From Candidatus Bathyarchaeota archaeon (GTDB lineage: Archaea > Thermoproteota > Bathyarchaeia > Bathyarchaeales > Bathycorpusculaceae), in assembly GCA_963733095.1 (NCBI GenBank), contig CAVTBV010000013.1, forward strand, positions 32,001 to 96,000: a DNA stretch of 64,000 nucleotides. The letters are read 5' to 3'. The position numbers and the translations under genes are program-made. The stretch's first letter is position 1, and each line of letters begins with the position of its first letter. Of the stretch, positions 40,261-59,018 are shown in pieces. Under the pieces are notes generated by a model that worked only from the letters and a program-made list of their open reading frames with translations, was not told the origin of the DNA and did no database searches.

Positions 40261-41550
40261 ATGTCTTACAATCCAGCTGACATTGCATGGGTTCTAACGT
40301 CAACAGCGCTCGTTATGCTGATGACTCCGGCCTTAGCCTTCTTTTACGGCGGCTTAGTCCGAAGAAAAAACCTTGTCTCAACCCTTGTCCAATGTATCGC
40401 CATCTTCGCCGTCGTCAGCTTAGTTTGGTTCTTATGGGGCTACAGCCTCGTTTTTGGACCCAGCATCGGCGGCGTCATCGGAAACTTATCTTTGGCAGGC
40501 TTAAACGGCATTACAATAAACCAAGTTAACACCACCTATGCAGCCGGTATCCCTGAAATCTTGTTCTTCGCGTTCCAGCTAAAATTTGCCGCAATCACAC
40601 CAGCCCTGATCATAGGTGCCTGCGCCGAGCGAATTCGCTTCAAATCCCTGCTTATCTTTGTTGTTTTATGGTCGACTCTCATTTACTCGCCAATAGCCCA
40701 CTGGCTCTGGAACGTCAACGGTTGGTTACACGTTTTAGGCGCCTGGGATTTTGCAGGGGGCATAGTAGTTCACGTCGCGGCTGGGTTGTCAGCCTTGGCA
40801 GCGGCTTTGATTGTAGGTAGACGAAAGGGTTGTGTTTACTGGAAAGACCAAATGAAAGCATTAGACCGCAAAGACGTCAGCGCCCCCGCGATGGGAACCG
40901 AATTCAAACCCACAAACATACCCTATGTGATTTTGGGCGCCGGGCTCCTGTGGTTTGGCTGGTTTGGCTTCAACGGAGGCAGCGCATTAGCAGCTGATAG
41001 CATCGCCGTTTCCGCAGTGGTCGCAACCAACTTGGCGGCGGCGGCAGCGGCGGTAAGTTGGATGCTTATGGATTGGGTAATTAAAGGCAAACCATCCGCC
41101 ATTGGAATCTCTGTTGGTGCAGTTTGTGGTATGGCAGCGGTTACGGCAGCTGCAGGATACATTAACTTCACAGACGCAGTAATCATTGGGTTATCTGCGG
41201 GCATAATCTCAAACTTGGTTGCTAACTGGCGTGCCGGCAGATCGCGAATAGACGACACACTCGACGTTTTTGCCTGCCACGGAATCGGCGGCATCATTGG
41301 CGCGGTGGCGGTTGGTTTGTTTGCTACTGCAGCTGTGAACCCTCTTGTTCGAGGATTATTCTATGGTAACGCGGCTCAGCTCGGCATTCAAGCGCTCGCT
41401 GTCACGGTTGTGGCTGCCTTCGCATTCGTCGGCTCCTACCTTCTTCTAAGGCTGGTGGACGTTTTTTCGCCATTGCGTGTTAGTCCCAAAGAAGAGGATG
41501 AAGGCTTAGATATGAGCCAACACGGCGAAGAAGCCTATCACCTAGATTAA
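40261..41550 (+). CDS. amt: Ammonium transporter (copy 2)
   Basis: Same Amt motifs; close paralog of copy 1. Confidence 0.95.
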   Translation: MSYNPADIAWVLTSTALVMLMTPALAFFYGGLVRRKNLVSTLVQCIAIFAVVSLVWFLWGYSLVFGPSIGGVIGNLSLAGLNGITINQVNTTYAAGIPEILFFAFQLKFAAITPALIIGACAERIRFKSLLIFVVLWSTLIYSPIAHWLWNVNGWLHVLGAWDFAGGIVVHVAAGLSALAAALIVGRRKGCVYWKDQMKALDRKDVSAPAMGTEFKPTNIPYVILGAGLLWFGWFGFNGGSALAADSIAVSAVVATNLAAAAAAVSWMLMDWVIKGKPSAIGISVGAVCGMAAVTAAAGYINFTDAVIIGLSAGIISNLVANWRAGRSRIDDTLDVFACHGIGGIIGAVAVGLFATAAVNPLVRGLFYGNAAQLGIQALAVTVVAAFAFVGSYLLLRLVDVFSPLRVSPKEEDEGLDMSQHGEEAYHLD

Positions 41551-41770: not shown

Positions 41771-41840
41771 TGCCGCGGGATGTTTAGATTTACACCCACG
41801 TTCAAATTCCCCACGAAGAAACAAGAAAAGGGTAGTAGAA
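41771..41840 (-). repeat. Degenerate tRNA-Ser 3'-end att-like copy plus flank shared with the 53077 copy
   Basis: TGCCGCGGGATGTTTAGATTTACACCCACGTTCAAATTCCCCACG nearly matches 53077-53120. Confidence 0.75.
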
Positions 41841-41993
41841 CTTCCCTCTCCAAACTCAGACGAGATCAAACCCTATAACGCTAAATGGGGGAAACTAACA
41901 CAAATTTACCTGATAAAAAGATATCAAGGTAGGAACGAACCTAACTTACCCGCGGGTGGGTATGCTTGTGCTACAGTTTCAAGGTAAGTAGCC

Positions 41994-42764
41994 TCAATCA
42001 ATCTGAATGCCTGGATACCATTTTCTTGCTGTTTCCCAATAATATGTAAAGAGGTCCCGGCATAATTTGAGGAACTTCTCGTCTTTCCCAAAAAAACCAA
42101 TGTAATCCAGACCGCCGTTATGCGTGCGAAGAACAATATTAGCTTCTTTTTCACTGATTAACAGTGCAACAGGGACTTGTTCTATATACCTACTGCCCAC
42201 CAAAAGCTCTTCCTTGCTGTTTTTAAATTTTTTTGCTAGGGCTTTTGGCATAATGAACTTGAAGTCAAGACCCTTAGATACTTTTTCTTTTGTTGGTTGA
42301 ACGTGACTTGATTCAACCGTTTCACCCATGGCATAAATGAATTTTTCTGCGTCATAAACGATTTTTCGAACCCCGTTTAGGGTGGCTAAAGTGTCTCCAC
42401 AAAACTCTCCACCCGACAACTCACCAAGCCTGTTAACGAACTCATATGGAAGGGCGGAAACATTGTGTTCCAAGAAGTAATCTCCATTTTTCAAAATGAA
42501 ATTGAAACTTGACAGAAGACCCGTCGCCAAACTGCCCAAAGACGTTATTGCGTAGGTGCCGTCAACTTTTTTCTCCACCAACTTGGCTTCACTTAGCCTT
42601 TGCAGGTGCCTGAATGTCTCAGTTACTGTCATGTCAAGTGATTTGGATATTTGCTGCATCTTGAAACCTTGTTTTTCCACCTCAAAAAGTATGCTTGCCC
42701 TTCGGTTGCTGGCAAGCTCAAAAAGAACCTTGGAGATTTCCGATTCTTCTTCGCTCTTGGACAT
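41994..42764 (-). CDS. Winged-HTH regulator (COG4742/DUF1724-like), module 1
   Basis: LFELAS..R..IL, M......LD.T.TE.FR.L.RL, YFL.H....LP..FVNR.GEL, DLF.YYW. Confidence 0.82.
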   Translation of the reverse strand: MSKSEEESEISKVLFELASNRRASILFEVEKQGFKMQQISKSLDMTVTETFRHLQRLSEAKLVEKKVDGTYAITSLGSLATGLLSSFNFILKNGDYFLEHNVSALPYEFVNRLGELSGGEFCGDTLATLNGVRKIVYDAEKFIYAMGETVESSHVQPTKEKVSKGLDFKFIMPKALAKKFKNSKEELLVGSRYIEQVPVALLISEKEANIVLRTHNGGLDYIGFFGKDEKFLKLCRDLFTYYWETARKWYPGIQID

Positions 42765-42857
42765 GCTTATTTTTTCGCATCCTTGCAAACTTATTCGTAT
42801 TAACGTCAAATAAATCTTATCACAAAAGTTCGCTATCATTAATTCTGAGGAACAAAC

Positions 42858-43121
42858 ATGAACAACAAAGAAAGCGAAAATGATGAACGCGACTTCTCCA
42901 TCGAACTCGCCTCAAACAGGTATCTGATGCGGTTCTCAACCTCCTCAAACGGCGGTGCCTGCGGCGTCTTAATAGAAGGAACGCTTGGAAGACTTCGACA
43001 TGCCCTCTTTGTGGAACCTCAAATACTGGAAGTTAAGGGCAGCTGCGGAGTTCTCAGATTAAACTTGACATTTAACGAAGTTAAAGATCCAGTTAAAAAA
43101 ACTGGAGGTGAAGAACTATGA
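42858..43121 (+). CDS. Small beta-rich hypothetical protein, module 1
   Basis: FSIEL.S..VLIEGTLG.L....F.E..ILEV.G..GVLR; paralog at 50438-50695. Confidence 0.75.
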   Translation: MNNKESENDERDFSIELASNRYLMRFSTSSNGGACGVLIEGTLGRLRHALFVEPQILEVKGSCGVLRLNLTFNEVKDPVKKTGGEEL

Positions 43122-43351
43122 AGTTAAAAGAAAAAGTCATGTTCACCGTATTTGGAGTATTGATTTTCTTCATATCAGGCGGTGTTGCTTGCACATACGG
43201 TAGTACAGGCGCCGTTAACCCAGTCTTGGCAGTCACGCTAGGCGTTTTGGTTTTCTTCATTGCAGGTGCAGCCGCATGCACATACAGCAACAATAGAATT
43301 GCCCAACAGAAAATAAACCAAACCGTGCCTAAAGCAAGCGCTGAGGCATGA
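43118..43351 (+). CDS. 2-TM miniprotein with duplicated ACTY motif
   Basis: GVLIFFISGGVACTY / GVLVFFIAGAAACTY; GGAGGTGA SD, ATGA overlap. Confidence 0.7.
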   Translation: MKLKEKVMFTVFGVLIFFISGGVACTYGSTGAVNPVLAVTLGVLVFFIAGAAACTYSNNRIAQQKINQTVPKASAEA

Positions 43352-43369
43352 AAGGAGCCGACTTGTAAT

Positions 43370-43902
43370 TACTGAGATCAAAAGTCCTCCAAAGCTTTCT
43401 CTTTTTCTGTCGTAGCTGCAGTTTTGATTTTAAGTAATGCAGTACTCCTTGGCGTTGTAGCAGGGTGGTTTATTGGAATAATCCCTACCCTTCCAGGGTC
43501 CGCTGGTAATGATCCGGTGGTTCTGTACTGTCTTTCAGTTGCGGGGTCGGTGTTTGGGGTTCTGGTTTTACTTGGATGGAAAAAGAAGTACTTCTTAAGG
43601 GGTATCAGAGTTTTGATACCTTTAGATCAGTCATTAAGACTATAGCTGGAGACACTATAAAGGAAGTAATTCCACACAAGTCAGAAGAAAATGTCTTGGA
43701 GTTCATAAGAAAACATGGACAAGTTGCACCAGTTGAAATTCAGGTCTCTTTTGACTATTCAAATAAGGAAGTTCAGTCTATTATTGAAAGTTTAAACGCA
43801 AGGAATCTAATTCAAGTCATTCCGGCAGGAAATGGATCTCTAATAAAACTTTCAAAGGAACCTTCTTCTTGTGATTCAAATTCTGGTGTTTGCAGCATTT
43901 AA
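43370..43902 (+). pseudogene. Chimeric remnant: N-part of a membrane protein joined to a DsbA/YjbH-like C-terminal fragment
   Basis: Membrane frame (..IIPTLPGSAGNDP..) switches near 43575 to EKEVLLKGYQSFDTF...VLEFIRKHG.VAPVEI; neither part looks complete. Confidence 0.5.
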
Positions 43903-43970
43903 GAGTCGTGTAGCTTACTTTGAGCAAAACCTGACAAAGACAAACTTGAAAGACTTGGAATTTATGAAGT

Positions 43971-44050
43971 CAATTTAAGCTTAATTATTGAAAATATCTT
44001 CAAAAATAGGATTAAAATGAAAATAATGGCGCGGATTGTGAGAATTGAAC
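43971..44050 (-). repeat. Degenerate att core (21/24 match) plus left flank shared with 53024-53063
   Basis: TGGCGCGGATTGTGAGAATTGAAC at 44027-44050; flank 34/40 identical to 53024-53063. Confidence 0.75.
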
Positions 44051-44735
44051 ACCTTGTTTTTCCGCGGGTTATTTAATTTTTCCATGGTCGGTTATTATTT
44101 GACATGTGTGGTAGCCCGGAAGTTACCCTTCCCAGACTCGAATTTATTTCGAAAAATCCCTTTTTTATCTTATTGAAATCTACTATTAAAAAAGGTCACA
44201 ATTAAAACTAGAGTTAGGAATTGGAGTTGAACCCATATATGTTGGCGACATCGCCAATTCTGCTTCTCCTAAGCAGCTACTTTCTCTTTTTTTAACAATT
44301 CCTTCTATTCATTGGCGGGTATGGCAGGTTATCGCTCATGAACACAGGTCATTTGTACTTTTTCCCCTTTTTAGTATAAAAAAAAGTTTTTCGTGGAACT
44401 ACTATGAACTCCTGGCGTTATGCGATTTTAGTTTTCATTTAAGGCGTTCAAACTGGGCTGTGTAGGCTTCTTGTTAACGTTTACGATATTTGCATTATCG
44501 TAATGATTTTTTTCTCCTTAAGAATCTTTCCAGAAGCCTCAACAAACCATTGGAAGCAAAAATCTTTTCCGGTCAGATATATGACTGATTCGCGTTTCTC
44601 GCTTCATTTGATTTCCGCATTATTTATTTCGCTTTTAATTGGTAAGTACTGTCCTCTTTTTGAGACTCGCTACAAATAAGCAAAGCTTATTAGCCGGGTA
44701 TTAAACGCTTTTGTACCCAAAAGGAGAGAAGAAAA

Positions 44736-47435
44736 ATGCAATTTAAAACAAAAACAACTATTTTGATCGCAACATTTCTGATATTGACAATGGCTATACC
44801 TGCCATAATTCATCCTGCTAACGCACAGACTTCTAGCCAAATGAAATCATACGCTTTCATGGCGGTTGAGCCAAACCCAGTTGGTGTAGGTCAAACCACC
44901 TACATCGCAATGTGGGTTGACGTTCCACTACCTGGAGCATCAGAAGCCAACGATATCCGAAAGCATAACTATCTACTCACTATTACTGCACCCGACGGTA
45001 CTACACAAACACAAACTTGGGCTGTAGTTGCAGACACAACCGGTGCTCAATCAACATCCTTCACACCTACCCAAGTAGGAACCTACAAATTCGCCTTTAG
45101 CTACCCCAACCAAAATTACACATGGACCTCAGCAACTTACTTAGGTAACAACGCCTACACTGGCGTCATATTCTTAGGTGCCAATGCAACCGCAACCCTA
45201 ACAGTCCAAGAAAATCCAGTACCTCAAACACCAAATTCACCTCTGCCAAGTGAATACTGGACAAGACCAATTTACGGAGAAGATTTCAACTGGTACACTA
45301 TAGGATCACAATGGCTTGGAAGTGGTAGTTCCTATACTGCTGCCAGTAGCAACTACTTCGGCTCCTTCCAGCAAGGTGGTATGAACTTATGGCAACAAGG
45401 TGGAACAGGACCAGAAAGTTCACACGTTGTCTGGACAGCTCCATTTGAAGATGGAGGAGTCGTCGGCGGAATAAACACAGGTATCACTGGCGCAACCTTC
45501 TATTCAGGCGGTTCTTACGAAGGCAGATTCCAAAACGCATTGATTATAGACGGTAGACTCTACTACAAAGCACCATTAGGTGACCAAGTCAGCACAACTG
45601 CTACCGGCGCAGGGACCTATACATGCAGAGACTTACGTACAGGCGAAGTCCTTTGGACTAACGACAACATCAACCCAACATTCGGCGAACTATATGACTA
45701 CGAATCTCCAAACCAGCATGGAGTAGTTCCAAATGGCTACCTATGGCAAGCAGTAAGCCAATCATCTACAACACAGACATGGATAGCTTATGACTCATTA
45801 ACTGGCAAATGGTTATTCAATATTACCGATGTACCATCAACAGGCACAATCGCATATACCAGCCAAGGTGAAATCGTCAAATACATTCTAAGTTACAACA
45901 ACGCTGCAAAATCAGGTTGGCTAGCACTCTGGAACTGGACAAGTGCAAACGGAGTTCCTGCAAGTTCTACAACTGCTAATGGGGTACAATTAAATGGACC
46001 CGGATCAGGTACTAACTATCTACAGTTCAGACCAGTCGGCAGAATCATAAACGCAAGCACAGCATACTCATGGAACGTCACAATCGGCGACATAATGGGT
46101 CCATCAAACTCACAACTCGTTCCAGGCACTACAACAACGCAAAACCCAACAATACAGTATGTACTTCCAGGCGATTTACTATTTGGCACAACACCAAACA
46201 TTGCACCAGGTGTTCTATCAATAAGAGGCACCCCTAACCCATACACAGTTTGGACAATTAGCTTAGCAGACAGCGACAAAGGCACAATCATGTGGAAGAA
46301 AACATACGATGCACCAACAGGCAATATGACGCTCAATCTTGGCCCAATAGACCCAGTGAACCGCGTCTGGACCACGACTACCGCTGAAGACATGCAATAC
46401 CAAGGCTATAGTCTGGCTGACGGAAGTAAACTGTGGTCAACTAATACCGATGTACGCGCATTCCAATGGTTCAGCAGCGGCTCAGGCGCAGGCCAAAGAT
46501 GTGTAACTGCATACGGAAACATCTATACCCAAGGCTTCGGCGGCGAAATGTTTGCCTATGCAGCAAACAACGGCACTCTACTGTGGAAATTCAATGACAC
46601 AGCCAGCGGCATGGACACCCCTTGGGGTAACGTACCAATATTCATCGCTGCAATTGCAGACGGCAAAGTCTATGCATTCAACAACGAACACTCACCTAAC
46701 TCACCACTATACAAAGGATACAGCATCTACAGTCTAAACGCTACCACAGGCGAGGAAATCTACAAGATGCTCAGCTGGGCAGGACAAACCGGCGGACAAG
46801 GCTTAAGCACCTCTGTTCTAGCAGACGGCACACTAGTTTACTACAACTACTATGACAACTCACTCTATGCAATCGCTAAAGGTCCAAGTCAAACCACCGT
46901 AACCGCTTCACCGAAAGTCTCAACAAACGGTGACAAAGTCCTGGTAGAAGGCACAGTCACCGACATATCAGCAGGTACAAAACAAAACGAGCAAGCGGCA
47001 AGATTCCCTGCAGGCGTTCCAGCAGTCTCTGATGCAAGCCAAGCAGCATGGATGGAATACGTTTACATGAAACAAGAACGGCCAACCAATGCGACAGGCG
47101 TTCCAGTAACCTTAAGCGTACTCGACCCCAACGGCAACTACTACACTGTCGGCACAACCACAAGCGATTCAATGGGCAACTTCAAGCTGGCATTCACTCC
47201 ACAGGTACCGGGCGAATACAATATCTACGCAAACTTTGCAGGTTCTGGTGCATACTATGGTTCAGGCGCTGAAACCGCAATCGTCGTCGACAATACTGCA
47301 GCATCACCCACACCAGTCGCAACACAAGCACCATCAATGGCTGACCTATACTTTGTCCCAGGCATAATCGGCGTTATCATTGCGATAATCGTCGTTGGTG
47401 CGGTTCTACTCTTAGCTCTTAGAAAGCGTCCATAA
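44736..47435 (+). CDS. Large secreted PQQ-like beta-propeller surface protein with C-terminal TM anchor
   Basis: Signal peptide, PNPVGVGQ, PLP.EYWTRPI, DLRTGE.LW, IADGKVY....EHS, VTDISAGT.Q...ARFP.GVPAVSD, TM+RKRP. Confidence 0.85.
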   Translation: MQFKTKTTILIATFLILTMAIPAIIHPANAQTSSQMKSYAFMAVEPNPVGVGQTTYIAMWVDVPLPGASEANDIRKHNYLLTITAPDGTTQTQTWAVVADTTGAQSTSFTPTQVGTYKFAFSYPNQNYTWTSATYLGNNAYTGVIFLGANATATLTVQENPVPQTPNSPLPSEYWTRPIYGEDFNWYTIGSQWLGSGSSYTAASSNYFGSFQQGGMNLWQQGGTGPESSHVVWTAPFEDGGVVGGINTGITGATFYSGGSYEGRFQNALIIDGRLYYKAPLGDQVSTTATGAGTYTCRDLRTGEVLWTNDNINPTFGELYDYESPNQHGVVPNGYLWQAVSQSSTTQTWIAYDSLTGKWLFNITDVPSTGTIAYTSQGEIVKYILSYNNAAKSGWLALWNWTSANGVPASSTTANGVQLNGPGSGTNYLQFRPVGRIINASTAYSWNVTIGDIMGPSNSQLVPGTTTTQNPTIQYVLPGDLLFGTTPNIAPGVLSIRGTPNPYTVWTISLADSDKGTIMWKKTYDAPTGNMTLNLGPIDPVNRVWTTTTAEDMQYQGYSLADGSKLWSTNTDVRAFQWFSSGSGAGQRCVTAYGNIYTQGFGGEMFAYAANNGTLLWKFNDTASGMDTPWGNVPIFIAAIADGKVYAFNNEHSPNSPLYKGYSIYSLNATTGEEIYKMLSWAGQTGGQGLSTSVLADGTLVYYNYYDNSLYAIAKGPSQTTVTASPKVSTNGDKVLVEGTVTDISAGTKQNEQAARFPAGVPAVSDASQAAWMEYVYMKQERPTNATGVPVTLSVLDPNGNYYTVGTTTSDSMGNFKLAFTPQVPGEYNIYANFAGSGAYYGSGAETAIVVDNTAASPTPVATQAPSMADLYFVPGIIGVIIAIIVVGAVLLLALRKRP

Positions 47436-47447
47436 ATGAAAATCAAT

Positions 47448-47472
47448 GGGAAATATTTTCCCTCCCTTTTTT
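47448..47472 (+). terminator. Hairpin plus T-tract after the surface protein gene
   Basis: GGGAAA-TAT-TTTCCC then TCCC-TTTTTT, 13 nt after the stop. Confidence 0.5.
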
Positions 47473-47783
47473 AGTCTTAGTCTAAGCGTTTTAAATGGGC
47501 TCAGAGTGCTTCTGGAATAAATTTACGAAGTTCTTCCATCAAGGTACAATCGTAAAGTACGGTTTGGGTTCCACCCAAAGATTCCATAAAAAAATTACAG
47601 CTTTTGAACCTTAGAAAACAGCAGACAACTATATAGGATTCGGTCGTGGAGCTGGGGATGGATGGGAGTTGCATCCCTTTCAGTTGGAGACGTCTCCCTC
47701 AAGACTCCCATTTTTGTTAATTCAAGAGAAAAGAGAGATGGTAGAACAATCCAGTTTTTCTGATTGGAATAGCAATTAAGTTT

Positions 47784-48074
47784 TTATTTGCTGTAATCCT
47801 TTATCGGTGCAAGTGGTATGGTGGAAGTTTCAGTAACGCCTTCTATTAACCGAATCTTGTCTGCCACAAAATCTAAGGCGTTCGTGTTGGTGTCTGCTTG
47901 AAATAGAAGAGCGAAATCCCATTGTCCAAAAGCTCGGTATGCTTCCTCCAGCTTCACGCCTTCCACAGGTTTTTCGGTGAATTCCATTAATGGTTCATAA
48001 ACTTTTGCAGTCATATTAGGACTTAGTTTAATCATCAACAGATATTTCTGAACTGTTTTTTCCGTTTTAATCAC
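47784..48074 (-). CDS. GYD/Lrp-AsnC ligand-binding-like small protein
   Basis: YL.L.K, Y..FGQWDF, I..IEGV.ETST. Confidence 0.7.
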   Translation of the reverse strand: MIKTEKTVQKYLLMIKLSPNMTAKVYEPLMEFTEKPVEGVKLEEAYRAFGQWDFALLFQADTNTNALDFVADKIRLIEGVTETSTIPLAPIKDYSK

Positions 48075-48564
48075 CTTACGAAAACTTGAAGGTGTTTGAA
48101 TCTAAAAAATGTGTTGCTTAGCAGTTTAAAGTGAGAAAATCTGCCTCAAAACCCCTTTTTTAGTAGTTCTGTCACTTTGGATAATTAGAAATAAAGAGAC
48201 TTTTCACACAATCTGATTTGGGTTCAAATCCCCGGGGTCTTTACAGGTACTGATTTAACTGTAAATAGCAAATCTTAAGTGCAAATTCCAATAAACTTCT
48301 GTAAGCGGCGAGTTACATACAACATTTTTCATTGAGAATAGTAAGGATGAAATCTTTTTAAATCAGATTATATTAACTTAATAAAGAATCAAAAAGTTAT
48401 GTCTCATAATACGGGAAAAGAAGAACTTGTTAATACCCCTGCTGGACCAAGACCAAAAAATTCTGTGCACGCGATAAAACCTGGCGGAGTTATCCTAGAA
48501 GAGAAAGGCAGAATAAGTATCCAAGTCTGTAAAACCATAAAAAATCTCCAAGGCGAGCATAACG

Positions 48565-48921
48565 TTGACTTATCGTAAGATCAAAAGATGTGACTGGACA
48601 AAATCATTAACTTTCATAGGAATCTATGTAGCAGTCATTTCAATTACCGCTTTTATTCTGCTTGTCACATACTGGTATCTCTGGATAGTATTGGTAGTGG
48701 GCGGATTGTTTATCCTTGTCTTGTGGCACAAAAAATCCACTGCATATCACTGCCCAATATGCGGCAACGAATTCGAAATATCCTTCTTAACCGACTTCTT
48801 TAGCCCCCACGGAGTAACCAAAAACGGGGGCGGTTGGACCTACCTAAAATGTCCCAAATGCTCTAACAGAACAAAAATGGAAATACTTGTAAAGACAAAA
48901 AAACAAATAAAAACTAATTGA
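48565..48921 (+). CDS. 2-TM plus Zn-ribbon hypothetical protein
   Basis: Two TM, YHCPICGNEFEIS...SPHG...YLKCPKC. Confidence 0.7.
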   Translation: MTYRKIKRCDWTKSLTFIGIYVAVISITAFILLVTYWYLWIVLVVGGLFILVLWHKKSTAYHCPICGNEFEISFLTDFFSPHGVTKNGGGWTYLKCPKCSNRTKMEILVKTKKQIKTN

Positions 48922-49073
48922 AACAGAAGAATGGAAGCAGGCCAACGCAGAGGCAAAAAATTAAACGCTTAATCCAATTAGGCAAAAAACACGAGAAAAA
49001 ATAAATAGGATTGGGCTCAAATAAAAAAATTGGTTTGCGAGTAAAATCACGCGCGATAACCGGAAGACCGAAA

Positions 49074-49985
49074 ATGTCCTTTAGATTCAATATTAAACAG
49101 AACATTTACACAATAGGCAAAGTAAAGGTAGGCGGCCAGCCGGGGGAGCTTCCCACTTTTCTGATAGGCTCATTATTTTGGCTAGGTCAGAAAATCGTTC
49201 AAGACGCAAACAAAGGCCTTTTTGATGAACAGCAAGCAGAAAAAATAATCAACACCATGCAAACGCAAAGCGACATAACAGGCATAAAATTTGGCTTTGA
49301 CATAGTTGGAACAACCGAGATTGCCTTTGAGAAATACATAGACTTTGTAGCAAAACATACTGACGCCCCGTTGGTATTAGACGCGATGAGTCCTAAAGCT
49401 CGTATGGCAGCATCGAGCATGGTTAAAAAAATGGGGCTTGCAGACAAGTGCATATACGACTCAGTCTACAAGGGCGTTACAGAATCAGAAATTGCAAAGT
49501 TGAAGGAAAGTGGAATAGAGGCAGCAATTGTTTTAGCAGATAACCAAAAAGACAACAGCTTGGACGGAAAAATGGCTATAGTGCAGGAGGCGCTTGCATT
49601 AGCCAAAAGAGCCGGGATCACAAAACCGCTTATAGATACAGCTATTCCAGCATTTGCACCAGATATGGGTACATCAGTTAGAGCCATACCTGCCATGAAA
49701 GAGAAGTATGGTCATCCTGTAGGCTTGGGTAGCGGGAACGTTGTTACAACCATGGGTTGGGTAAAAGCCAACGTTGCTAAAGAATTTCGTAAGGGATGTG
49801 TAACCGCAACCAACTCGATAATGCAAACGGCAGGCGCTAACTATTTAATGTTCGGACCAGCTGAACAAGCTGAATGGGTATTCCCAGCCGTCGCAGTAAC
49901 TGTCACATACATTGCTTCAGCAGCAGCCGACCTTGGAACAAGACCCCTCGAAGAGTCTCATCCAATCTACAAAGCCTTCCTTTAA
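49074..49985 (+). CDS. mtrH: Stand-alone MtrH-family pterin-dependent methyltransferase
   Basis: F...Q....IG.VK.GGQPGELPT.L.GS.F...KIV.D..KG.FD, KPLIDTA, G.PVG.G..N, GA..L.FGP. Confidence 0.82.
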   Translation: MSFRFNIKQNIYTIGKVKVGGQPGELPTFLIGSLFWLGQKIVQDANKGLFDEQQAEKIINTMQTQSDITGIKFGFDIVGTTEIAFEKYIDFVAKHTDAPLVLDAMSPKARMAASSMVKKMGLADKCIYDSVYKGVTESEIAKLKESGIEAAIVLADNQKDNSLDGKMAIVQEALALAKRAGITKPLIDTAIPAFAPDMGTSVRAIPAMKEKYGHPVGLGSGNVVTTMGWVKANVAKEFRKGCVTATNSIMQTAGANYLMFGPAEQAEWVFPAVAVTVTYIASAAADLGTRPLEESHPIYKAFL

Positions 49986-50228
49986 ATTGCATAGCATCGC
50001 CCTCTTTTAGTTCTGTCTGAACACGACAAATTAGATGTATCCAAAAGCGCGCCTGATTGGTTCTCAATGACACGAGACCCAGTTTCTAGTTATAAACTTT
50101 TCAATTTAGGGACAAGCCAGCGCGGCGTTTCAAGGTTTGGTCAGGAAATCCATTTCTACGTCGCTCATGAACAAAGAAAAGCGAACATTGTAGCGGTCAA
50201 CGCTTTCAGTCGGTAATTCTGCTTTTGG

Positions 50229-50441
50229 TTATCCCGTCAACAATGCCTTTGAAACGAAGATAACGATTACGTCTGCGACTACCAAGATTCCAGTGCTTAT
50301 GGGCGTGAAGGTGCAGGTTGCTCTGTACCCTAATAGGCATGGTTTACTTGCTTGAGCGTTGGGTATAACTGTCTTAGCTGCCGCAACCGTCAGTGCAAGA
50401 ATGACTAATGCAAAAACTGCGATGAGTGTTGTTGCATTTAT
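50229..50441 (-). CDS. 70-aa 2-TM Cys-loop miniprotein, module 2 (ATA at expected start; absent from ORF track)
   Basis: INATTLIAVFALVILALTVAAAKTVIPNAQASKPCLLGYRATCTFTPISTGILVV..; overlaps upstream stop as ATAA. Confidence 0.6.
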   Translation of the reverse strand: MNATTLIAVFALVILALTVAAAKTVIPNAQASKPCLLGYRATCTFTPISTGILVVADVIVIFVSKALLTG

Positions 50442-50695
50442 TTCACCCCTTTAATCTCTTTCGGCAGTGCCATCTTGAACTCCTGTGGGCTGACGTCTAC
50501 ACGCAAAACGCCGTTGCTACCAACTATCTCCACGATTATCGCTTCAGCAAAATTCACTCGTTCCAAATCGCCTAAGACGCCGTCGATAAGAACGTTCTGA
50601 GATAAGTCATTGGTCAACGTTAGATTTTTGAGGTTAGCTTTTGATCTGAGTTCGATTGAGAAAGAACATGTTTTGTTTCTGGTTTCTTTTTCCAT
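50438..50695 (-). CDS. Small beta-rich hypothetical protein, module 2
   Basis: FSIELRSK..VLIDGVLG.L....FAE.IIVEIVG..GVLRVD; paralog of 42858-43121. Confidence 0.75.
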   Translation of the reverse strand: MEKETRNKTCSFSIELRSKANLKNLTLTNDLSQNVLIDGVLGDLERVNFAEAIIVEIVGSNGVLRVDVSPQEFKMALPKEIKGVK

Positions 50696-50804
50696 CTTTT
50701 GGTGCCTCAATAGCAGTAGAGGTAACGGAATGTGATTAGTTTTATTTGCTAAGCATGTGTAATATTTCACATTGAATCCAAATTCTTAACAAGAGTGGTT
50801 CGAA

Positions 50805-51524
50805 TTGAAGGAAGTTGAAGAGTTGGACAGGTTGTTCTTTGAGTTTGCGAGCGAAAGCAGGCTCAGTATACTCCGCATATTGCAGACTGAGAATTTAAAA
50901 ATGCAGGAAGTTGCTCGTCGACTAGACTTGACAGCGACGGAGGCTTTCAGACAGCTAGAAAGGCTCAGTGTCGCGATTCTGGTGCAAAGGCAACCCGATG
51001 GCTCTTACGCTCTAACACCATCCGGCAGACTCGAGCTGCACCTTGCCTCTTCGATGGGCTTCATTCTTAGCCACAAGCAGTACTTTTTAACCCATGACAT
51101 CTGGGAACTTCCCATGCAATTCGTAAATCGCATTGGCGAGCTCTCGCAAGCAATGCTGAAGATGGGCCTCATAGAAAGTACGTTTAAGTCTTCCCAGCTA
51201 ATTGGAGAAGCCAAGCACTATATGTGGGCCGTTTCACCTGAACTGCTACCCCAAACTTTTGAGGCGATAGCAAAACAAATCCCCAAAGGCGTACAATACA
51301 GAATCCTTTCTCCTCAGTCACCTGTGAAACTGCCGAATCTGGAAAACCGGACTCTGATTGACTGCCCAGCAATCTTTGCAATCACCGAAAATGAGGCCGC
51401 CTTGTGTTTCCGGTTTCTTGACGGAAGAGTGGATTATGCAGGCTTCATTGGGAATGACGATACCTTCCTCAGATGGGTCACAGACCTATTTCTTTACTAC
51501 TGGGATAAGGGAAAACGAGCGTGA
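50805..51524 (+). CDS. Winged-HTH regulator (COG4742/DUF1724-like), module 2
   Basis: Paralog of 41994-42764 (FE.AS..R, KMQ....LD.T.TE.FR.L.RL, FVNR.GEL, DLF.YYW). Confidence 0.82.
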   Translation: MKEVEELDRLFFEFASESRLSILRILQTENLKMQEVARRLDLTATEAFRQLERLSVAILVQRQPDGSYALTPSGRLELHLASSMGFILSHKQYFLTHDIWELPMQFVNRIGELSQAMLKMGLIESTFKSSQLIGEAKHYMWAVSPELLPQTFEAIAKQIPKGVQYRILSPQSPVKLPNLENRTLIDCPAIFAITENEAALCFRFLDGRVDYAGFIGNDDTFLRWVTDLFLYYWDKGKRA

Positions 51525-51881
51525 CGCAGCCCCAATTATTTCCAGCGTTATTTTGGGCTCATTTTCGTCCTTGGCGCGCTACTTTACCCCGATATTAAGT
51601 TTGAAGAATGTTGGTGATATCGCCTTATCTGGTCTTCCGAGGTTTTAAGATGCTTCTCCGTTTAAAATCAACTAACTCTATTCCCACTTGCCATTTGTTT
51701 GTTTAAACTGCATCTGAACCACACGGCAATCCTCGCACCAAAACATGCGCATCTTCGAGACAGGACTATAATGAGTGTCTTTGGTGTATCCTCTGGGTCG
51801 ATAAACTAGTTGGTTCGATTAAAGTTTGGGTCCCCCAATCAAAAGCGCGTGCCGTAACCGTAACTCACATCTGGATTTCTA

Positions 51882-52761
51882 TTAGAGATTTGAGAAAATT
51901 CCAATGAAGATGGGTATGTCGGTTCCTGCGTGCAATAGAATTGGTCCGATTATGCTGTCTGTTCTCCGCATAACATAACCTAACACCAAACCGAGAAGAA
52001 ACGTAGCGACAACAAGAACTGAAATGTATTGTGTGTACTGTGTTATGCCAATTCCAGCTACCGAGTGGCTGAGGGAAAAAATCAGCGCTTGCAAAAGGAT
52101 GGATAGACCGTTTCCCAGCAAACCCTCGAATTTTCTCAAGAAGAGACCAACGATACAACAGTTCCTCTCTCAATCCGTTAGCTAAAACAATTGGTAGTAT
52201 CCAAGGCATCCAGGAAACCAATTTTGATATCGTGAGGTTTTGACCCTCAAATAGATAATTGGCTCCTGGAATGGATAATGCAACAAACACAAGGAAACCT
52301 GCCAATCCAACGAGAACTCCAAGTCTTATTTTTCCCTTCGATAAAAAGACAGAGTACATGCTGCCACCGGAGAATCTCGTTAATACAATTATTGAGGTAA
52401 CTACTAGTGCAGTGCTTGATAGCATGGCTAAGACTATTCCATTCATTGTGGTGGTTTCAAAACCTAACCAGCCGCTAATTGCTTGCAAATTCAGTGCGAA
52501 AGAGGCGATGAAAAAAGCTATCGCGATTTGCCAATATTTCTTGAAACGCTTGTTTCTATAGAAAAATACTGCCAATGTTAGAAAGAAAAATGAGAGGATA
52601 ATTAAGTAAATTTGCCATAGACTATTTGGTATCAATGAGAAAGGAAAAATCAACAAACCAGACAGTGCCGGAAGACTTAGACCAAATACTAAGAAGATCA
52701 CGAACAACTCGACTCGGTACGCTGAAATGTGAATGGTTCCCATTGGTTTACCCGTCAACAA
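51882..52761 (-). pseudogene. CPBP/CAAX intramembrane protease with 1-nt frameshift
   Basis: EELLYR, then an extra T at about 52149-52150; GLFLRK..IFSLSH..S..G.ILLHAG.D continues in another frame. Confidence 0.8.
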
Positions 52762-53023
52762 TAACTTCTAAGATTGCATATAAAATTAACCACCTTAGTG
52801 TAAAGGCTTGAATCGGTCCCAATTGGAGATTTTTCTTGAATGCTTGCTTATTGTTTTTTGGTATTATTCGTTTTTCTTTTCAGTGCTTATTCGCACGTTT
52901 CTGGTCTCACACCACGAATGGTGCAAGTCTCTGCGCGGAGCTCAGCCCCAAAACTTGGAACAGATTTGAGTTGGAGTGGCTTCAAACAATAGACCGTAGG
53001 GTATAGTGCATTTTTTCCTATCG

Positions 53024-53146
53024 CAATTTGAGCTTAATTATTAAAAAGAGGTTCATAAATAGGTTGAATTTGGTAATGGCGCGGGATGTTAGATTTACAC
53101 CCACGTTTAAATTCCACACGAAAAAATAAAAAGACGGTTAGGAGAA
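53024..53146 (-). repeat. tRNA-derived att-like site carrying both shared flanks
   Basis: 53077-53105 matches tRNA 62365-62393 at 24/29; left flank like 43971, right flank like 41771. Confidence 0.78.
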
Positions 53147-53148
53147 GG

Positions 53149-53550
53149 CTAACCTTCCTGTTTAGGCCACTTCCATGCATGCCAAACAATTAGTGCAATA
53201 AACACAACTTCTAAAATCTCATAAAATGAATAATAAGCCCAAGTCTCTCCTGGGACAAGCAGTGCAGGGACCAAAACACCAGCATAGACTATACCTACAA
53301 TGATGTTTACCCAGCGATTCACTTTAGCCGGCAATGCCAGGGACAAGAAAATCATAAAAATCGGAATCGCCATTAATATTGCAGCTAAAAACAAGGATAC
53401 TTGATTAAGTGCGATTTCTCCTGATAGTACTTTCTCCACTATATCTTGCCTATAGAATCCGAAAACATCGTTATACAAATAAAAAAACATTAAAGCTACC
53501 CATAATGCTGAAAGCTTAATCTTCACATTTATCTTCACATCTTCTAACAT
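53149..53550 (-). CDS. DUF6326-like 4-TM membrane protein
   Basis: KI.VK.KLSALW...MF.YLY.D, LPAK.NRW.NI, IVW.AWKWP. Confidence 0.7.
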   Translation of the reverse strand: MLEDVKINVKIKLSALWVALMFFYLYNDVFGFYRQDIVEKVLSGEIALNQVSLFLAAILMAIPIFMIFLSLALPAKVNRWVNIIVGIVYAGVLVPALLVPGETWAYYSFYEILEVVFIALIVWHAWKWPKQEG

Positions 53551-53818
53551 AGGCTTCTCTCTCTCCTCATTCGAGTATTTAGGGCATTACCTGTTGATTT
53601 GGATTTAACACTATTGGTCAAATACACTAAGAAAGGAAAGAAACTCTTCCTATAAAATGTCAAGAAACTTAAGTGCTCTCTAGCAGTCCTTACGGTATAG
53701 TTCATCAATTGGTTAAATTGGAAGAAAGCAAGGCCAGCACAATACCAAACATGGCAGACTCAACTCAATAGGGACGGCATTAAAGAAAACCGTTTTTATG
53801 TTCATTAGAGTAGCAATT

Positions 53819-54790
53819 TTACTCCACAGCTATTACTATTTTTCCTCGTTGTTTTCCTTCCTCGAGATACCGTAGAGCCTCAGCAGTCTCACTCAACGAA
53901 TAACATCTATCTATAACAGGCACCACATTGCCGGATTCAATAAGCTCTTTTACAAAAACCAAATCTTCTCTTTTGTTTGGTTCCATAGGAATACCCATTT
54001 TCTTGCTTCCAGTCATTGAAATCAACGGACCTATGAACAAAGCTTGGAAAATTGCAGTCCTAGAACCTCCGACTATAAGATAAATGCCCTTGGAACTCAA
54101 AGCACACTTGTAATCGAAAATAGAGTGATGTGCCGCAACATCAAGAATCAGGTCATATGTCTGCCCATTTTTGGTGAAATCTTCTTTAGTGTAATCAATG
54201 ACGTGGTCTGCACCAATTGAGCGCAGCATGTCCAATTTATCCGTGCTATCCACGCCAGTCACCTCAGCCCCAAAGTACTTGGCAATCTGCACCGCGAATG
54301 TACCTATACCACCGCCTGCACCATTAATCAAAACTTTTTGTCCTTGCTCAATTTTTCTTTTAGCACGAAGATACTTCATGGCGATAGCGGCTCTTGAGGT
54401 TACGGTCGCTGCTTCTGCAAATTTCATGCTGACTGGTTTTAGTACTAAAGCATCTTCAGGTGCACATACATACTCTGCAAAAGCGCCAAAACCATAGTTG
54501 GTTAAGTCTCCGAATACGTCATCACCTGGCTGAAACTGCTGTATGTTTCTGCCAACCGCTTCAACCCGCCCCGCTATGTCAGAACCGAGTATCTTGTATT
54601 TTGGTCTTAAAGGCCCAATTAAGCGGACAGCGATCGTACCTCTCAGGTGTTCTAAGTCATCTACGTTTACAGATGCTGCATATACTTTTACCAGCACTTC
54701 GTTGTCCATTGGAATGGTTTTTTCTACCTCTTTGAGCTGGAGAACATCTGGTGATCCGTATTTAGTGCGTATAATTGCTTTCATTTTCAC
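53819..54790 (-). CDS. NAD(P)-dependent MDR-family oxidoreductase
   Basis: KYGSPDVL, LGSDIAG.VEAVG, NGAGGGIGTFAVQIAK, GAD.VIDY, GK.V. Confidence 0.9.
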   Translation of the reverse strand: MKMKAIIRTKYGSPDVLQLKEVEKTIPMDNEVLVKVYAASVNVDDLEHLRGTIAVRLIGPLRPKYKILGSDIAGRVEAVGRNIQQFQPGDDVFGDLTNYGFGAFAEYVCAPEDALVLKPVSMKFAEAATVTSRAAIAMKYLRAKRKIEQGQKVLINGAGGGIGTFAVQIAKYFGAEVTGVDSTDKLDMLRSIGADHVIDYTKEDFTKNGQTYDLILDVAAHHSIFDYKCALSSKGIYLIVGGSRTAIFQALFIGPLISMTGSKKMGIPMEPNKREDLVFVKELIESGNVVPVIDRCYSLSETAEALRYLEEGKQRGKIVIAVE

Positions 54791-55129
54791 ACATGCTAAT
54801 CACTTTTAACGTATATAAGAGCGCTCGCTAACCAGACCAAAATTATGCTTGTCCGTACAGCTTTTTGTATAGATAGCCAACAACTATTCCTGGGAAGAGA
54901 AACCTTGGAATGTTCATTACTGTGTCGACCAAAAGTAGACATAGGTATTGCTTAGATTGCCAAAAGTTGAAAGGACTTCGATGATGACTAAGGCAACAAA
55001 GCTAAGGATCAAGGCTTATAGAATTGGGCTGAAAAATTCAGAAATTTGCAAGCACAATGATTTTTATCTTTTTCCTGAGCCCTTTTTTGGTAAATAACAA
55101 AAAATTAAGCTCTGTTTGGCAAAAGGAGC

Positions 55130-56017
55130 GTGGCGCGGGATGTGGGAATTGAACATACTGCTCCTGAGTTTATGGTCTATCTTAAACAGAATATTAGGGA
55201 AGTTACTGCTAAAACATACGTTAAACGGCTAGGACTTCTTAGTAAGGTAGCTAATCTGGATGATGCTGAGAAGACTAAAAATGTGATTTGTAGTTATCCA
55301 TGTACCGAATCGTTTAAGGAATTAATGGCTAGTGCATATGATTACTATGTTCGTTACAAAGGTCTAACTTGGAATAAACCCAGATTCACAAGAGATGATA
55401 AACCATTCTTTATTCCGTTAGAAACTGAGATAGACCAACTAATCAGTAAATCTAGAAAGAAGATGTCTGTGTTTCTACAGTTGCTTAAGGAGACTGGTGC
55501 CGATTCTGGTGAAGCATGGAAACTAAGATGGCTTGATGTTAACCTTGAAAATAAAACTGTTGCTATCACACCTACAAAGAATCATAATTCTAGGGTATTG
55601 CCGATTTCTAATAATTTGCTGTCTAGAATGCTAAGTTTGCAACGTGAGAATGAAAGAGTATTTGGTTGTAATGCTCATACGCTCGATGATTTCAGACGTA
55701 GATTTGAAGACATGAAGAATGCGCTTAGTATAAAACTAGAGAATCCCAGATTAAAGGAGATAGCATTCCGTTCATTTAGGCATTGGAAAGCAACAACTGA
55801 GTACCATAAAACAAAGGATATTTTGCATGTTAAATGGTTGCTGGGTCATAAACGGATTGAGAACACGTTAGTCTATACGCATCTAGTAAACTTTGATAGT
55901 GATGAATACGTCTGTAAGGTTGCTAAGACTCTTGATGAGGCTTCTGTTCTGATTGAATCTGGATTTGAATATGTTACGGAGATGAATAGTGTTAAATTGT
56001 TCAAAAAACGCAAATAG
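55130..56017 (+). CDS. Tyrosine integrase, int(C) portion
   Basis: Begins within att (VARDVGIE); ETG..GEA..L.W.DV, F.SFRHWKAT, LLGH..IENT.VY. Confidence 0.9.
   Translation: MARDVGIEHTAPEFMVYLKQNIREVTAKTYVKRLGLLSKVANLDDAEKTKNVICSYPCTESFKELMASAYDYYVRYKGLTWNKPRFTRDDKPFFIPLETEIDQLISKSRKKMSVFLQLLKETGADSGEAWKLRWLDVNLENKTVAITPTKNHNSRVLPISNNLLSRMLSLQRENERVFGCNAHTLDDFRRRFEDMKNALSIKLENPRLKEIAFRSFRHWKATTEYHKTKDILHVKWLLGHKRIENTLVYTHLVNFDSDEYVCKVAKTLDEASVLIESGFEYVTEMNSVKLFKKRK
55131..55154 (-). repeat. att site (duplicate of tRNA-Ser 3' end)
   Basis: TGGCGCGGGATGTGGGAATTGAAC identical to 62365-62388. Confidence 0.95.
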
Positions 56018-56108
56018 TTAATTTAAATAGTAGCTTCCAACAAATGCTTTCTTGTCTGGCGAAATTAGTTTGGCTGTTAGACCAATAAAAAAATAACGGA
56101 CTAGGCAA

Positions 56109-56684
56109 ATGAGCGACATAAACAATAATTGGAGATTTACTCGAACACCAGTAGCCCCAGACAAACTAAAACAACTAAAGCAACAATCAAAAGCAAAAAC
56201 TATTGAGTTTTTAATATCTCAAGTACCACAGGGAATTGAACTTTGCAAACAAAATATTGCAGATTTTATAAATGATGCGAGAATCATAAATGAGAAAGGC
56301 AGACTTTGTCACGCATATGTATCTTTCGAGTTTGCTCTTGAAGAATTTGGGAAAATAATGATGTTAAAAGAAGCACTAATTAATTCGGTAGTCAACGATA
56401 AAATTGTTGTAAGTAAAGACTTTTTTAAACACAATAGAAAGTGTGAGAAAGCGATTGAAAAATTGGGTGCTGAGTTCAAATCTGTGTATGATATGAATTG
56501 GTTTCTAAGAGAAACGCTCGGACTATATCCTTTATGGTATGGCACTAAAACCAGCCACGAGACAAGAACAGACTGTGCTTTTGTAAATTATAGAAACGAT
56601 GAATTTGTAATTGGAAGACCAATTGACTCCGTGAAATTTATTAAACTCATAAATCAATTAGAAGAAAAAACAATGTTGGAATAA
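56109..56684 (+). CDS. AbiV-like (HEPN) abortive infection protein
   Basis: N...F..DA..., FALEEFGK, F..H..K, R..C.FV. Confidence 0.7.
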   Translation: MSDINNNWRFTRTPVAPDKLKQLKQQSKAKTIEFLISQVPQGIELCKQNIADFINDARIINEKGRLCHAYVSFEFALEEFGKIMMLKEALINSVVNDKIVVSKDFFKHNRKCEKAIEKLGAEFKSVYDMNWFLRETLGLYPLWYGTKTSHETRTDCAFVNYRNDEFVIGRPIDSVKFIKLINQLEEKTMLE

Positions 56685-56836
56685 TTTACTGCAAGGACGA
56701 ATTCCCGTAAATGTTTTCATAAGACACTACTGGAGTCCTAAGTTAGTTGAGTTGCGAGACAGAATCCTTAAGGCATTAGAGCTTTTAGATAAAGAACGAC
56801 AGCAACCATTAGTAACAAGATGACGTATTCTGGAAA

Positions 56837-57349
56837 CTAAGTAAACGTAAATCGATTTGATGACTTATGTTCTTCCTGTTTTTTTGTTATTTGTTTAAAT
56901 TCGTTTTGTAATGGTATATAAACTGTTGTTATCGAAACTATTCCAACATAAAAGAATGCGGCAGAAGCTACCATGAAAATACCCACTATATAATAGCCTC
57001 CTGTATTGTCGGGATTTTGAACAGTTAACCAAAGAGCATCAATTACTACCGAACCTAAATAAAGTACAAAAGTAATTATAACTCCAAAGAACAGACGTAC
57101 AGGCATTTTTTTCAAGTAATTTATGTCTTTACGCAATTTGGTAAGTTGCTTCATTTCTTTATTATTGGAAACAGGTGTAATATTACTTTTGACTTCTTCA
57201 AATTTCGCTAACTTATCGTTTAACTCCGTATTTAATTCTTCAAAAACTCGATGAAACATTGGTATAATCAGCGCGTATGCAGCAAGAACCAATCCAGCTC
57301 CAGTTATACTCGCTTCCATGAAACCAATAACAATGGATGAGTCTATCAA
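56837..57349 (-). CDS. Membrane protein (TM-coiled coil-2TM), unknown function
   Basis: Three hydrophobic segments around a helical linker. Confidence 0.6.
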   Translation of the reverse strand: MIDSSIVIGFMEASITGAGLVLAAYALIIPMFHRVFEELNTELNDKLAKFEEVKSNITPVSNNKEMKQLTKLRKDINYLKKMPVRLFFGVIITFVLYLGSVVIDALWLTVQNPDNTGGYYIVGIFMVASAAFFYVGIVSITTVYIPLQNEFKQITKKQEEHKSSNRFTFT

Positions 57350-58448
57350 ATTCTCGTCCCTACACCATTATATTTCAATGATGCTCGCATTTAAGACTTC
57401 TCACTAACAGAACATACGAGTTAGAATTTCATAAACTATCCCTTACTAACGCCATAACCCAATACTCAATAACCGTATATACAACTACAGATGCCCATCT
57501 GACTGTATCGACACCTTCTAGTCGATTATGTTTATTCACTAAGATGTCAATTTTATTTCTCTCATTCATATATTTGTTTATTTGTGTTATTTCATTACAA
57601 AGATTTCTTGTCTAGATTCCAACTGCATTTGCTCTATCGTCACATAATAGCATTTATATTATAGATTTGCTTATCTTTACATGCTACAAGGGTGTTACGG
57701 AAATCGTTTTACTCATGGAGTAGTCGGTTTAAAAACCTATTACAGAAGCGTCTGTACCTCAATGAGGCTAAGTGTGGATTAATGGCTAGTTCCCCTAGGC
57801 ATAGGCTTCAGGATATTAAGAACTAGTAAACAAGCAGATTAGTAAAACCGCTAGTGAAATTGCTATTAGGATAAACTATGTCTCTAGTGATGTATTATTT
57901 CTCTATTGATATAGTATGTCTTTAGTGTGTCTAAGTATATGCATTTATCCAAACCGTTCATCTAGCTTGGTTATCTGTCTGTTTTAGTTACCGACTTATT
58001 TTTATTAAACGGATTTTTGTAGTTAAATTGGGAAAATGATGTGGGAAGCATCTTTCGTTGTGTGAAATCTTGGTTAAAAGTTGAGTGTGGGTAAAATCTC
58101 TATGAAAGGTTGTTTTTGTAATTGTTATAAGAAAAAGAATAACTGTTGGAGAGATAAAAACCATTGCTACATGGATGAAACGAAACAAATCTCTAACAGG
58201 CATATTTAGTTGATGTAAGAGTGGTGAATTATTTAAGGGTTAGTGGTGAGTTGGTATAGATGCAAAGAAATCTCTAATTGTTGGTGTATTAGTTGGAATG
58301 TATTTTGTTGGAAATCTTTAGATGTGGGAAGTATAATTTTAGTGTAGATGAACATCTGGTAAATTAATCGATGAAGTGATTATAGGTCTATTTAGGTACA
58401 TATATTAGGGGGCATTTAGTAGTGTTTAAGTATGGGGGATAAGATGAT

Positions 58449-58811: not shown

Positions 58812-58845
58812 AAAAACGGGTAAAAAGGCAGTTGAGGTTACAGAA

Positions 58846-59016: not shown

Positions 59017-59018
59017 AA

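Follow-up and report, generated by a model that had tools for sequence, protein, structure and literature searches.

The window analyzed here, a 64,000-nt stretch of contig CAVTBV010000013.1 (positions 32,001 to 96,000, forward strand) from a Candidatus Bathyarchaeota archaeon (assembly GCA_963733095.1, the genome referred to as G000), contains a single tRNA gene, tRNA-Ser(GCT), as determined by ARAGORN. The gene is on the minus strand, its downstream side is therefore at lower coordinates, and there an integrase-bearing element, E1, and three integrase-less units, U2, U3, and U4, stand in tandem behind partial copies of the tRNA 3' end. An initial annotation had taken these copies for attachment (att) sites in a possible integron-like array of non-autonomous cassettes, mobilized in trans by the adjacent integrase family. 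Across the genus, the claim of a cassette-like array held up: the unit ends are conserved, the units carry no recombinase, and the arrays vary unit by unit.

The tRNA-Ser(GCT) locus

The tRNA-distal end of a unit consists of a tRNA-derived core plus an arm of ~35 nt, B, with the cargo beginning right after it, and the tRNA-proximal end is an AT-rich arm, for which families A (with a variant, A2), D, and E were distinguished. Read outward from the tRNA, the locus comprises the following features, strand being given where one applies.

62365–62451, minus strand: intact tRNA-Ser(GCT) (ARAGORN)
55131–62364: E1, 7.2 kb, next to the tRNA, with a perfect 24-nt direct repeat at its borders
53077–55130: U2, 2.05 kb, no integrase; left end arm B, right end a D-type arm (~55060–55130)
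53819–54790, minus strand: U2 cargo, zinc-type dehydrogenase (Pfam)
53149–53550, minus strand: U2 cargo, DUF6326 membrane protein (Pfam)
52940–53125, plus strand: A-core-B joint between U3 and U2 (arm A 52940–53074, core 53075–53089, arm B 53090–53125), with the best B score in the window (67 bits)
44027–53076: U3, 9 kb, no integrase; left end a degenerate tRNA-like copy plus a C arm, right end arm A
41771–44026: U4, 2.26 kb, no integrase; left end a damaged B arm (41771–41821, 51.7 bits), right end arm A (43888–44026)
41994–42839, minus strand: U4 cargo, FilR1-like regulator, accompanied by four small open reading frames (ORFs)
38717–41550, plus strand: two ammonium-transporter genes in the chromosomal flank outside the array (PF00909; synteny)

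The four direct copies of the tRNA-Ser 3' end reported by the initial annotation (41771, 44027, 53077, and 55131) were all recovered, with identities to the tRNA end of 31/46, 31/47, 31/45, and 33/47 in global alignment. The 11-mer GCGCGGGATGT occurred five times in the window at no more than one mismatch, versus 0.43 occurrences expected, and none of 100 shuffles gave five; its fifth match, at 31366 inside an ORF, is probably due to chance. Common to all joints is a 15-nt core, AATGGCGCGGGATGT, comprising the last 13 nt of the tRNA, including CCA, and two downstream nucleotides, which occupies 62363–62377 on the plus strand at the tRNA itself. The copy at 55131–55154 perfectly repeats the 24 nt at 62365–62388, and the copy at 44027 is poor, with a 1-nt deletion in the core and 3 bits against the B profile. 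The locus thus carries the usual border signs of a tRNA island, namely a repeated tRNA 3' end on the far side, degenerate in the older units, and an intact tRNA on the near side.

The flank similarities underlying the cassette proposal were reproduced. Flank A (43971–44010 versus 53024–53063) matched at 34/40 nt as claimed, at 78% over 54 nt, and over 83 nt in BLASTN against the whole genome (E = 1.3e-6). Flank B (41784–41833 versus 53089–53138) was 86% identical, and 94% identical over 34 nt (E = 3.9e-8). The copies at 41771 and 53077 do have this flank and the same substitutions in common, save for two differences, a 1-nt insertion in the 41771 copy and a C at 41773 where the core has G. Neither A nor B proved to be an unlinked dispersed repeat, both being always tied to the core in BLAST searches. 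The site at 53077 is, as proposed, an A-core-B joint, but it does not require the circularization that had been read from it, since such a joint forms wherever the tRNA-proximal neighbor of a unit that ends in A begins with B; A-core-B joints are frequent in the arrays of relatives. Elsewhere in G000, two A-core-B-like joints stand alone, with no tRNA-Ser nearby (C16:120977–121038, minus strand, and C12:505905–505937, where C denotes a contig), the one on C16 being located between cobalt-transport (cbiM) and homocysteine-biosynthesis genes. Four non-coding stretches of 70 to 175 nt in the window (48933–49048, 50054–50124, 51644–51788, and 54852–55027) are also repeated in the genome, with two to eight copies each at 70 to 97% identity, and could represent leaders, miniature elements, or remnants of arms.

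The stated lack of an integrase was confirmed for 41771–55130, where no ORF had an integrase domain in Pfam and tblastn with the protein encoded at 55130–56017 returned nothing. In U2, the right border (55080–55154) is 80 to 83% similar to arms that, in five relatives, stand next to the tRNA or to a B site. The C arm of U3 spans 140 nt (44026–44166), and the cargo of this unit includes an 899-aa PQQ-repeat surface protein, an MtrH-family methyltransferase, a FilR1-like regulator, and small ORFs. No further site was found inside U3 (44027–53076) in a relaxed profile search with E values up to 50. A membrane-protein gene in the same unit, 51865–52761, is probably broken, the last third of its 298-aa ORF seeming out of frame by eye, and a counterpart stretch with 84% identity is located in the array region of genus genome G010.

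U3 and U4 each contain a divergent gene pair, paralogous to one another (41994–43121 in U4, 50438–51524 in U3), each pair encoding a FilR1/HVO_A0261-type regulator and a protein of ~90 to 110 aa with a shared motif. The C arm, at 82% identity, recurs with a Ser-type core at C13:450169–450310 of G000, 7.7 kb from a tRNA-Val gene; two DDE transposase genes lie between this arm and the tRNA-Val, and a zinc-ribbon integrase lies past the tRNA. In the outer flank, the block 36780–41550 (a 167-aa ORF, a 302-aa ORF, and the two amt genes) is conserved in relatives but inverted here relative to G003, G012, G001, and G072, where the gene next to the array is the 36780-type one and not amt; a search for an inverted core at the second inversion break (~36760) gave none.

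E1 is the newest insertion and an ordinary integrated element carrying its own tyrosine integrase. Its G+C content is 0.33 to 0.39, versus ~0.43 for the genome, and its GC skew is strongly positive. Apart from small ORFs without matches, it encodes the following.

55130–56017, plus strand: tyrosine recombinase, 295-aa open frame (PF00589, 2.4e-14; PHROG integrase)
56109–56684, plus strand: AbiV-type HEPN protein (PF18728, 2.8e-9)
61141–61818, plus strand: HNH endonuclease-domain protein (PF01844, 3.1e-7; PHROG HNH families)

The integrase frame opens with a GTG within the core copy, its first ATG being codon 15. In a reading-frame survey of 182 cores from all loci (two rows of which are the same window locus), this core alone preceded more than 110 in-frame codons. 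At the tRNA end of E1, 18 in-frame codons precede the core (62310–62364). In SSV-type (class I) integrases, attP lies inside the ORF, so that the gene is divided on integration, with Int(N) and Int(C) as the resulting parts. The two closest relatives of the E1 integrase, those of G016 and G002, begin next to their tRNA and run in the opposite orientation. The E1 protein lacks the N-terminal zinc ribbon found in paralogs of ~380 to 430 aa in the same genome, of which there are about ten, mostly beside other tRNA genes; a second tyrosine-recombinase family is also present.

Unit ends and unit-wise variation across the genus

The comparison covered 81 genomes of the genus, G000 included (G-numbers denote genus genomes, L-numbers fetched loci). 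A 126-nt A-core-B query matched 54 of the 81 at E ≤ 0.01, some of them only via the tRNA's own end. The matches were often clustered 0.7 to 3 kb apart, and many B copies were ~98% identical. We then fetched the stretch downstream of tRNA-Ser from 15 relatives, eight of which had extra sites there, together with 20 hit clusters. At a profile cut-off of ≥35 bits, 41 B sites were found in 22 of the 33 fetched genomes, a set enriched by selection given that 20 of the loci were chosen because they had hits. Outside the genus, no B-type site occurred in 15 genomes of other genera in the family, and just two weak partial matches were found in 95 genomes of other families. Exact B was present in 41 metagenome stretches, five of which have tRNA-Ser next to the site.

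Among the 41 sites, mean pairwise identity in ungapped alignment was 77% for the core and 71% for B, falling to 28 to 31%, the random level, in the 45 to 56 nt on each side. The distal part of B carries a 17-nt motif, CGTTTAAATTCCACACG. The same motif recurs, inverted, in the proximal arms, at offsets of -106/-107 in A and of -116/-117 and -129/-130 in two D subtypes; with a cut-off of ≤4 mismatches, it was found in this orientation at 26 of 121 cores examined and in the forward orientation, used as a control, at none of the 121. In the intact joint of L097, a single-stranded fold pairs both motifs (-26.2 kcal/mol, z = -4.1, none of 200 shuffles as good). Mismatches between the motifs of a unit's own pair averaged 3.21 of 17 positions (n = 14), versus 3.22 (n = 18) for unrelated neighbors meeting at a joint, and no covariation was found among these 14 and 18 pairs. 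A shared protein-binding motif fits better than a selected hairpin. In the 53077 joint of the window, the arm B motif is at 53104–53120, its inverted partner in arm A has decayed, and the joint does not fold (z = +0.8). The idea that B is what remains of the beginning of an integrase gene was rejected, since none of the 182 cores has a long frame running on from B.

A-type arms also adjoin the intact tRNA in about ten genomes, and in genomes without an array the downstream flank of the tRNA is unrelated to A. Together these two observations indicate that A is borne by the elements and is not native chromosome.

When the arrays were cut at their sites, 57 units of 0.3 to 12 kb resulted, with up to four or five stacked behind one tRNA; the arrays at tRNA-Ser in relatives hold units of 0.7 to 10 kb. 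Cargo genes lie on both strands within arrays and encode lipocalin, MFS and ABC transporters, PNPOx-like, SnoaL-like, cupin, pirin, thioredoxin, flavodoxin, glyoxalase, GNAT, ParE/RHH, PIN, and Fic proteins, dehydrogenases, a helicase, and an IS200 fragment. None of 85 unit ORFs contained a recombinase domain, nor did any of the 15 in a 10-kb unit of G080, and no replication genes were found in unit ORFs. Some units of as little as 0.7 kb consist of one gene of an ordinary cellular type and keep both conserved ends.

Almost half of the units (24/57) fell into seven families, each occurring in at least two genomes, namely those with lipocalin, Fic, PNPOx-like, SnoaL-like, ABC transporter, and metallophosphoesterase genes and one with a two-gene pair lacking Pfam matches; the ParE/RHH pair belongs to a unit other than this last. 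Shared units occupy different array positions and have different neighbors. In G044 and G020, the Fic unit is distal to the lipocalin unit; in G019 it is distal to a VapC unit and in G003 to an ABC/GNAT unit. The PNPOx-like unit is the most distal in both G053 and G016, with different units proximal to it. The A arm of the lipocalin unit abuts the tRNA in G044, while in G091 this unit is fourth from the tRNA, and in G095 at least one peptidase/inhibitor unit starting with core-B separates the arm from the tRNA. Hence, the same A arm joins the tRNA in G044, the empty state, and core-B plus the peptidase unit in G095, the occupied state. Of 226 end points of between-genome homology, 29.6% lay no more than 60 nt from a site, a figure somewhat inflated because the sites themselves are homologous, versus 8.2% for random positions (maximum 14.2% in 1000 trials). 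Cargo is therefore not fixed or identical among relatives but varies unit by unit at the same tRNA.

Candidate recombinase and search for circular forms

Integrases at least 59% identical to that of E1 were encoded at just three loci in the 81 genomes: the window, G002 (a broken copy beside tRNA-Ser), and G016. The closest intact relative (L082; G016:C6:574001–594000; 62% identity) lies in a 5.4-kb tRNA-proximal element that follows immediately on a tRNA-like gene; the anticodon loop of this gene is CCT (Arg), and ARAGORN does not call it. Further out in this array, Arg-derived cores carry B-type arms and the inverted motif, with a Ser-like core at one joint, so that B-type ends are not bound to tRNA-Ser. 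This co-occurrence is the best support, still weak, for mobilization of the units in trans by the E1 clade. In G000 itself, partial copies of the tRNA-Arg(CCT) 3' end, followed by a conserved arm of their own, occur at C14:4955, C9:109646, and C15:30500, and it is probable that arrays of this sort stand at further tRNA genes of G000 as well.

Two relatives of the E1 integrase on viral contigs were rejected as the cognate element at 42 to 43% identity. A serine recombinase was likewise rejected, none having been found in G000, G053, G056, or G045, nor near the arrays of G091 and G003. No E1-like integrase was encoded on the 41 metagenome contigs with exact B, and none of these stretches was a circular contig with matching ends, many of them being cut pieces.

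Public reads were represented by Logan contigs from four metagenome runs, at a depth of ~2 to 4; the habitat, wetland, is taken from the labels of metagenome runs. Positions 42500–55172 and the tRNA were partly covered. The E1 stretch 55173–61842 was almost uncovered (one bin in one run, depth 0.33) and was not used as evidence. Two irregularities in these contigs were set aside: an 86-nt skip (47353–47440) in one contig is unrelated to the sites, and a loose end at 53089 in X4 is the 41771 locus placed on its look-alike.

Interpretation and relation to known systems

We interpret the locus as a tRNA-Ser(GCT)-anchored island that arose by repeated conservative site-specific insertion at the 15-nt core, with A and B as the ends of a family of integrase-less units, and assign this reading a probability of about 0.55. 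The anatomy of the arrays, their conserved ends, the absence of recombinases, and the unit-wise differences between species are direct observations. What we infer concerns circular intermediates, the recombinase involved, and activity at the present day: a circular unit (arm-core-B) would recombine at a core, either that of the tRNA or an internal one, the recombinase would be a tyrosine integrase of outside origin, with E1-clade elements as its most plausible source, the paired motifs may serve as protein-binding arm sites, and new units would shift older ones further from the tRNA. In its fuller form, in which the genus possesses a tRNA-anchored cassette system of non-autonomous units, many of them single-gene, inserted and excised in trans by an integrase from transient E1-clade elements and capable of switching between Ser and Arg targets, the proposal is tentative. 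The trans-mobilization by the adjacent integrase that the initial annotation envisaged gains weak support from G016, but only the core is shared between E1 and the units, and most arrays of relatives lack such an integrase within 20 kb.

Several observations weigh against repeated insertion of a mobile unit family. Shared units are 73 to 92% identical, like neighboring chromosomal genes of the same genome pairs, and since the two match, vertical inheritance with differential loss may account for their distribution. At the ≤4-mismatch cut-off, 95 of the 121 left arms lack the inverted motif and only 26 keep it, and it is gone from all five left arms in the window. The arms of E1 lack the B motif. 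No E1-like integrase lies within 20 kb of most relatives' arrays, and the array-rich genomes G053, G072, G051, G012, and G010 have no E1-clade integrase and few distant PF00589 matches. An autonomous element with the same ends was found neither in the 81 genomes nor in IMG/VR (both B patterns, 0) nor on the 41 metagenome contigs, and no circles, excision joints, or empty sites of the window units were seen in the four-run contigs at their depth of ~2 to 4. Furthermore, all compared genomes are metagenome assemblies, in which repeats may be mis-joined. The window units look old, given the loss of the inverted motif, and the indels at 41771 and 44027 agree with this; these particular copies are decayed and probably no longer mobile.

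The same facts can be read as a fossil record, in which the units are remnants of autonomous integrative plasmids or viruses that lost their integrase, nothing is mobilized in trans, and species differ through differential loss and homologous recombination between arms of 50 to 150 nt. Unit identities no higher than those of the chromosomal flanks, the degenerate sites in the window, and the persistence of arrays in genomes without a cognate integrase all agree with this, and integrase loss after integration, tandem integration (both in the available portion of PMC8371274), and tandem arrays formed by re-use of one site (likewise in the available portion of PMC6563490) are known from archaeal elements. 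Remnants of this kind, however, would not be expected to lack any integrase fragment in 100 unit ORFs and, by tblastn, in most arrays, nor to include one-gene units of 0.7 kb that retain both ends and the inverted motif at a fixed spacing. The conservation of B, nearly equal to that of the core beside bases at the random level, and the occurrence of B-type arms on the core of another tRNA in G016 also argue against it, and we consider this account unlikely, if still a serious competitor.

A true integron analog, with attC-like folding motifs, the tRNA as attI, a dedicated integrase, and a promoter in the arm expressing the cassettes, is improbable. It would explain the L097 joint, which folds with its motifs paired (z = -4.1), and the cargo resembles that of chromosomal integrons (toxin-antitoxin pairs, lipocalin, glyoxalase, GNAT). 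Nevertheless, the motif pairs show no covariation (3.21 versus 3.22 mismatches), the stem, in contrast to attC, spans ~118 nt with the core inside it, cargo genes face in both directions, the arrays have no fixed integrase gene next to them, and a serine recombinase is absent from G000 and three of five array-rich genomes and from the vicinity of the arrays in the other two. The integron-like character proposed at the outset was thus not upheld, there being no dedicated integrase, mixed gene orientation, and no covariation. That the sites are chance similarities or local duplications of the tRNA flank, and not recombination sites at all, is suggested by little beyond the poor 44027 copy and is contradicted by the shuffles, the genome-wide E values, and the recurrence of these joints across dozens of genomes and on 41 metagenome contigs; we regard this as extremely improbable.

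The usual view of tRNA-gene islands is that they are graveyards for viruses and plasmids that have integrated. Under the site-specific insertion reading preferred here, the conserved ends and unit-by-unit differences point to an exchange of single accessory genes in archaea, among them toxin-antitoxin pairs, transporters, redox enzymes, and regulators. The 15-nt core, the 17-nt arm motif, and the candidate integrase provide a defined substrate for tests of trans-mobilization.

Cis-mobilizable elements (CIMEs) of streptococci are att-flanked, lack recombination genes, and are viewed as deletion derivatives of integrative and conjugative elements. The units described here are similar in being att-flanked, in lacking recombination or transfer genes, and in standing in tandem with an integrase-bearing element (here E1 beside U2), with which, or by which, an integrase-less part could leave. 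They differ in being archaeal and often single-gene, in having a conserved end pair with an inverted motif, and in being stacked up to four or five deep. The tycheposon islands of Prochlorococcus, according to the available part of their description, likewise result from successive integrations at tRNA genes with partial tRNA copies in between, newer elements displacing older ones inward, and contain accessory cargo and degenerated remnants (bioRxiv 10.1101/2020.12.28.424599). Unlike the units here, which have neither and whose host looks archaeal from its intron-bearing tRNAs and archaeal-type domains, a tycheposon brings its own integrase and, as a rule, replication genes, in a bacterial host, and that same part treats integrase-less portions of islands as remnants or 'island genes', with no conserved-end family (bioRxiv 10.1101/2020.12.28.424599).

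Integration into the 3' end of tRNA genes, tandem arrays, and trapped genes without a working integrase are also features of known archaeal integrative elements at tRNA genes, and the E1 integrase frame opens in an att copy; the integrase-less units differ in having no flanking split Int(N) and Int(C) halves. She et al. are said to have described, in 2001 and 2004, the partition of SSV-type integrases and gene capture at archaeal tRNA genes. Archaeal integrative elements at tRNA genes have also been treated by others (Badel et al. 2020, PMC7253208). The available text of a review on archaeal recombinases uses neither 'cassette' nor 'non-autonomous' (PMC8371274). Our literature search, outside which lay subscription journals and supplements, returned no description of such a cassette family. 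The arrays described here differ in that very small units without an integrase form one coherent family, marked by a pair of conserved ends, within an archaeal genus.

Ghaly et al. reportedly found, in 2022, classical integrons in archaeal metagenome genomes. The arrays described here share with integrons small, promoter-poor accessory units of one or two genes, a conserved joint site, and apparently polar insertion at a fixed anchor. In contrast to integrons, the anchor is a tRNA, no IntI-type integrase lies beside the array, the sites do not look attC-like, and gene orientation is mixed; the integrase of E1, unlike the fixed integrase of an integron, lies inside a mobile element. If mobilization in trans is correct, these units would be functionally equivalent to integron cassettes, with an evolutionary origin in elements that integrate at tRNA genes.

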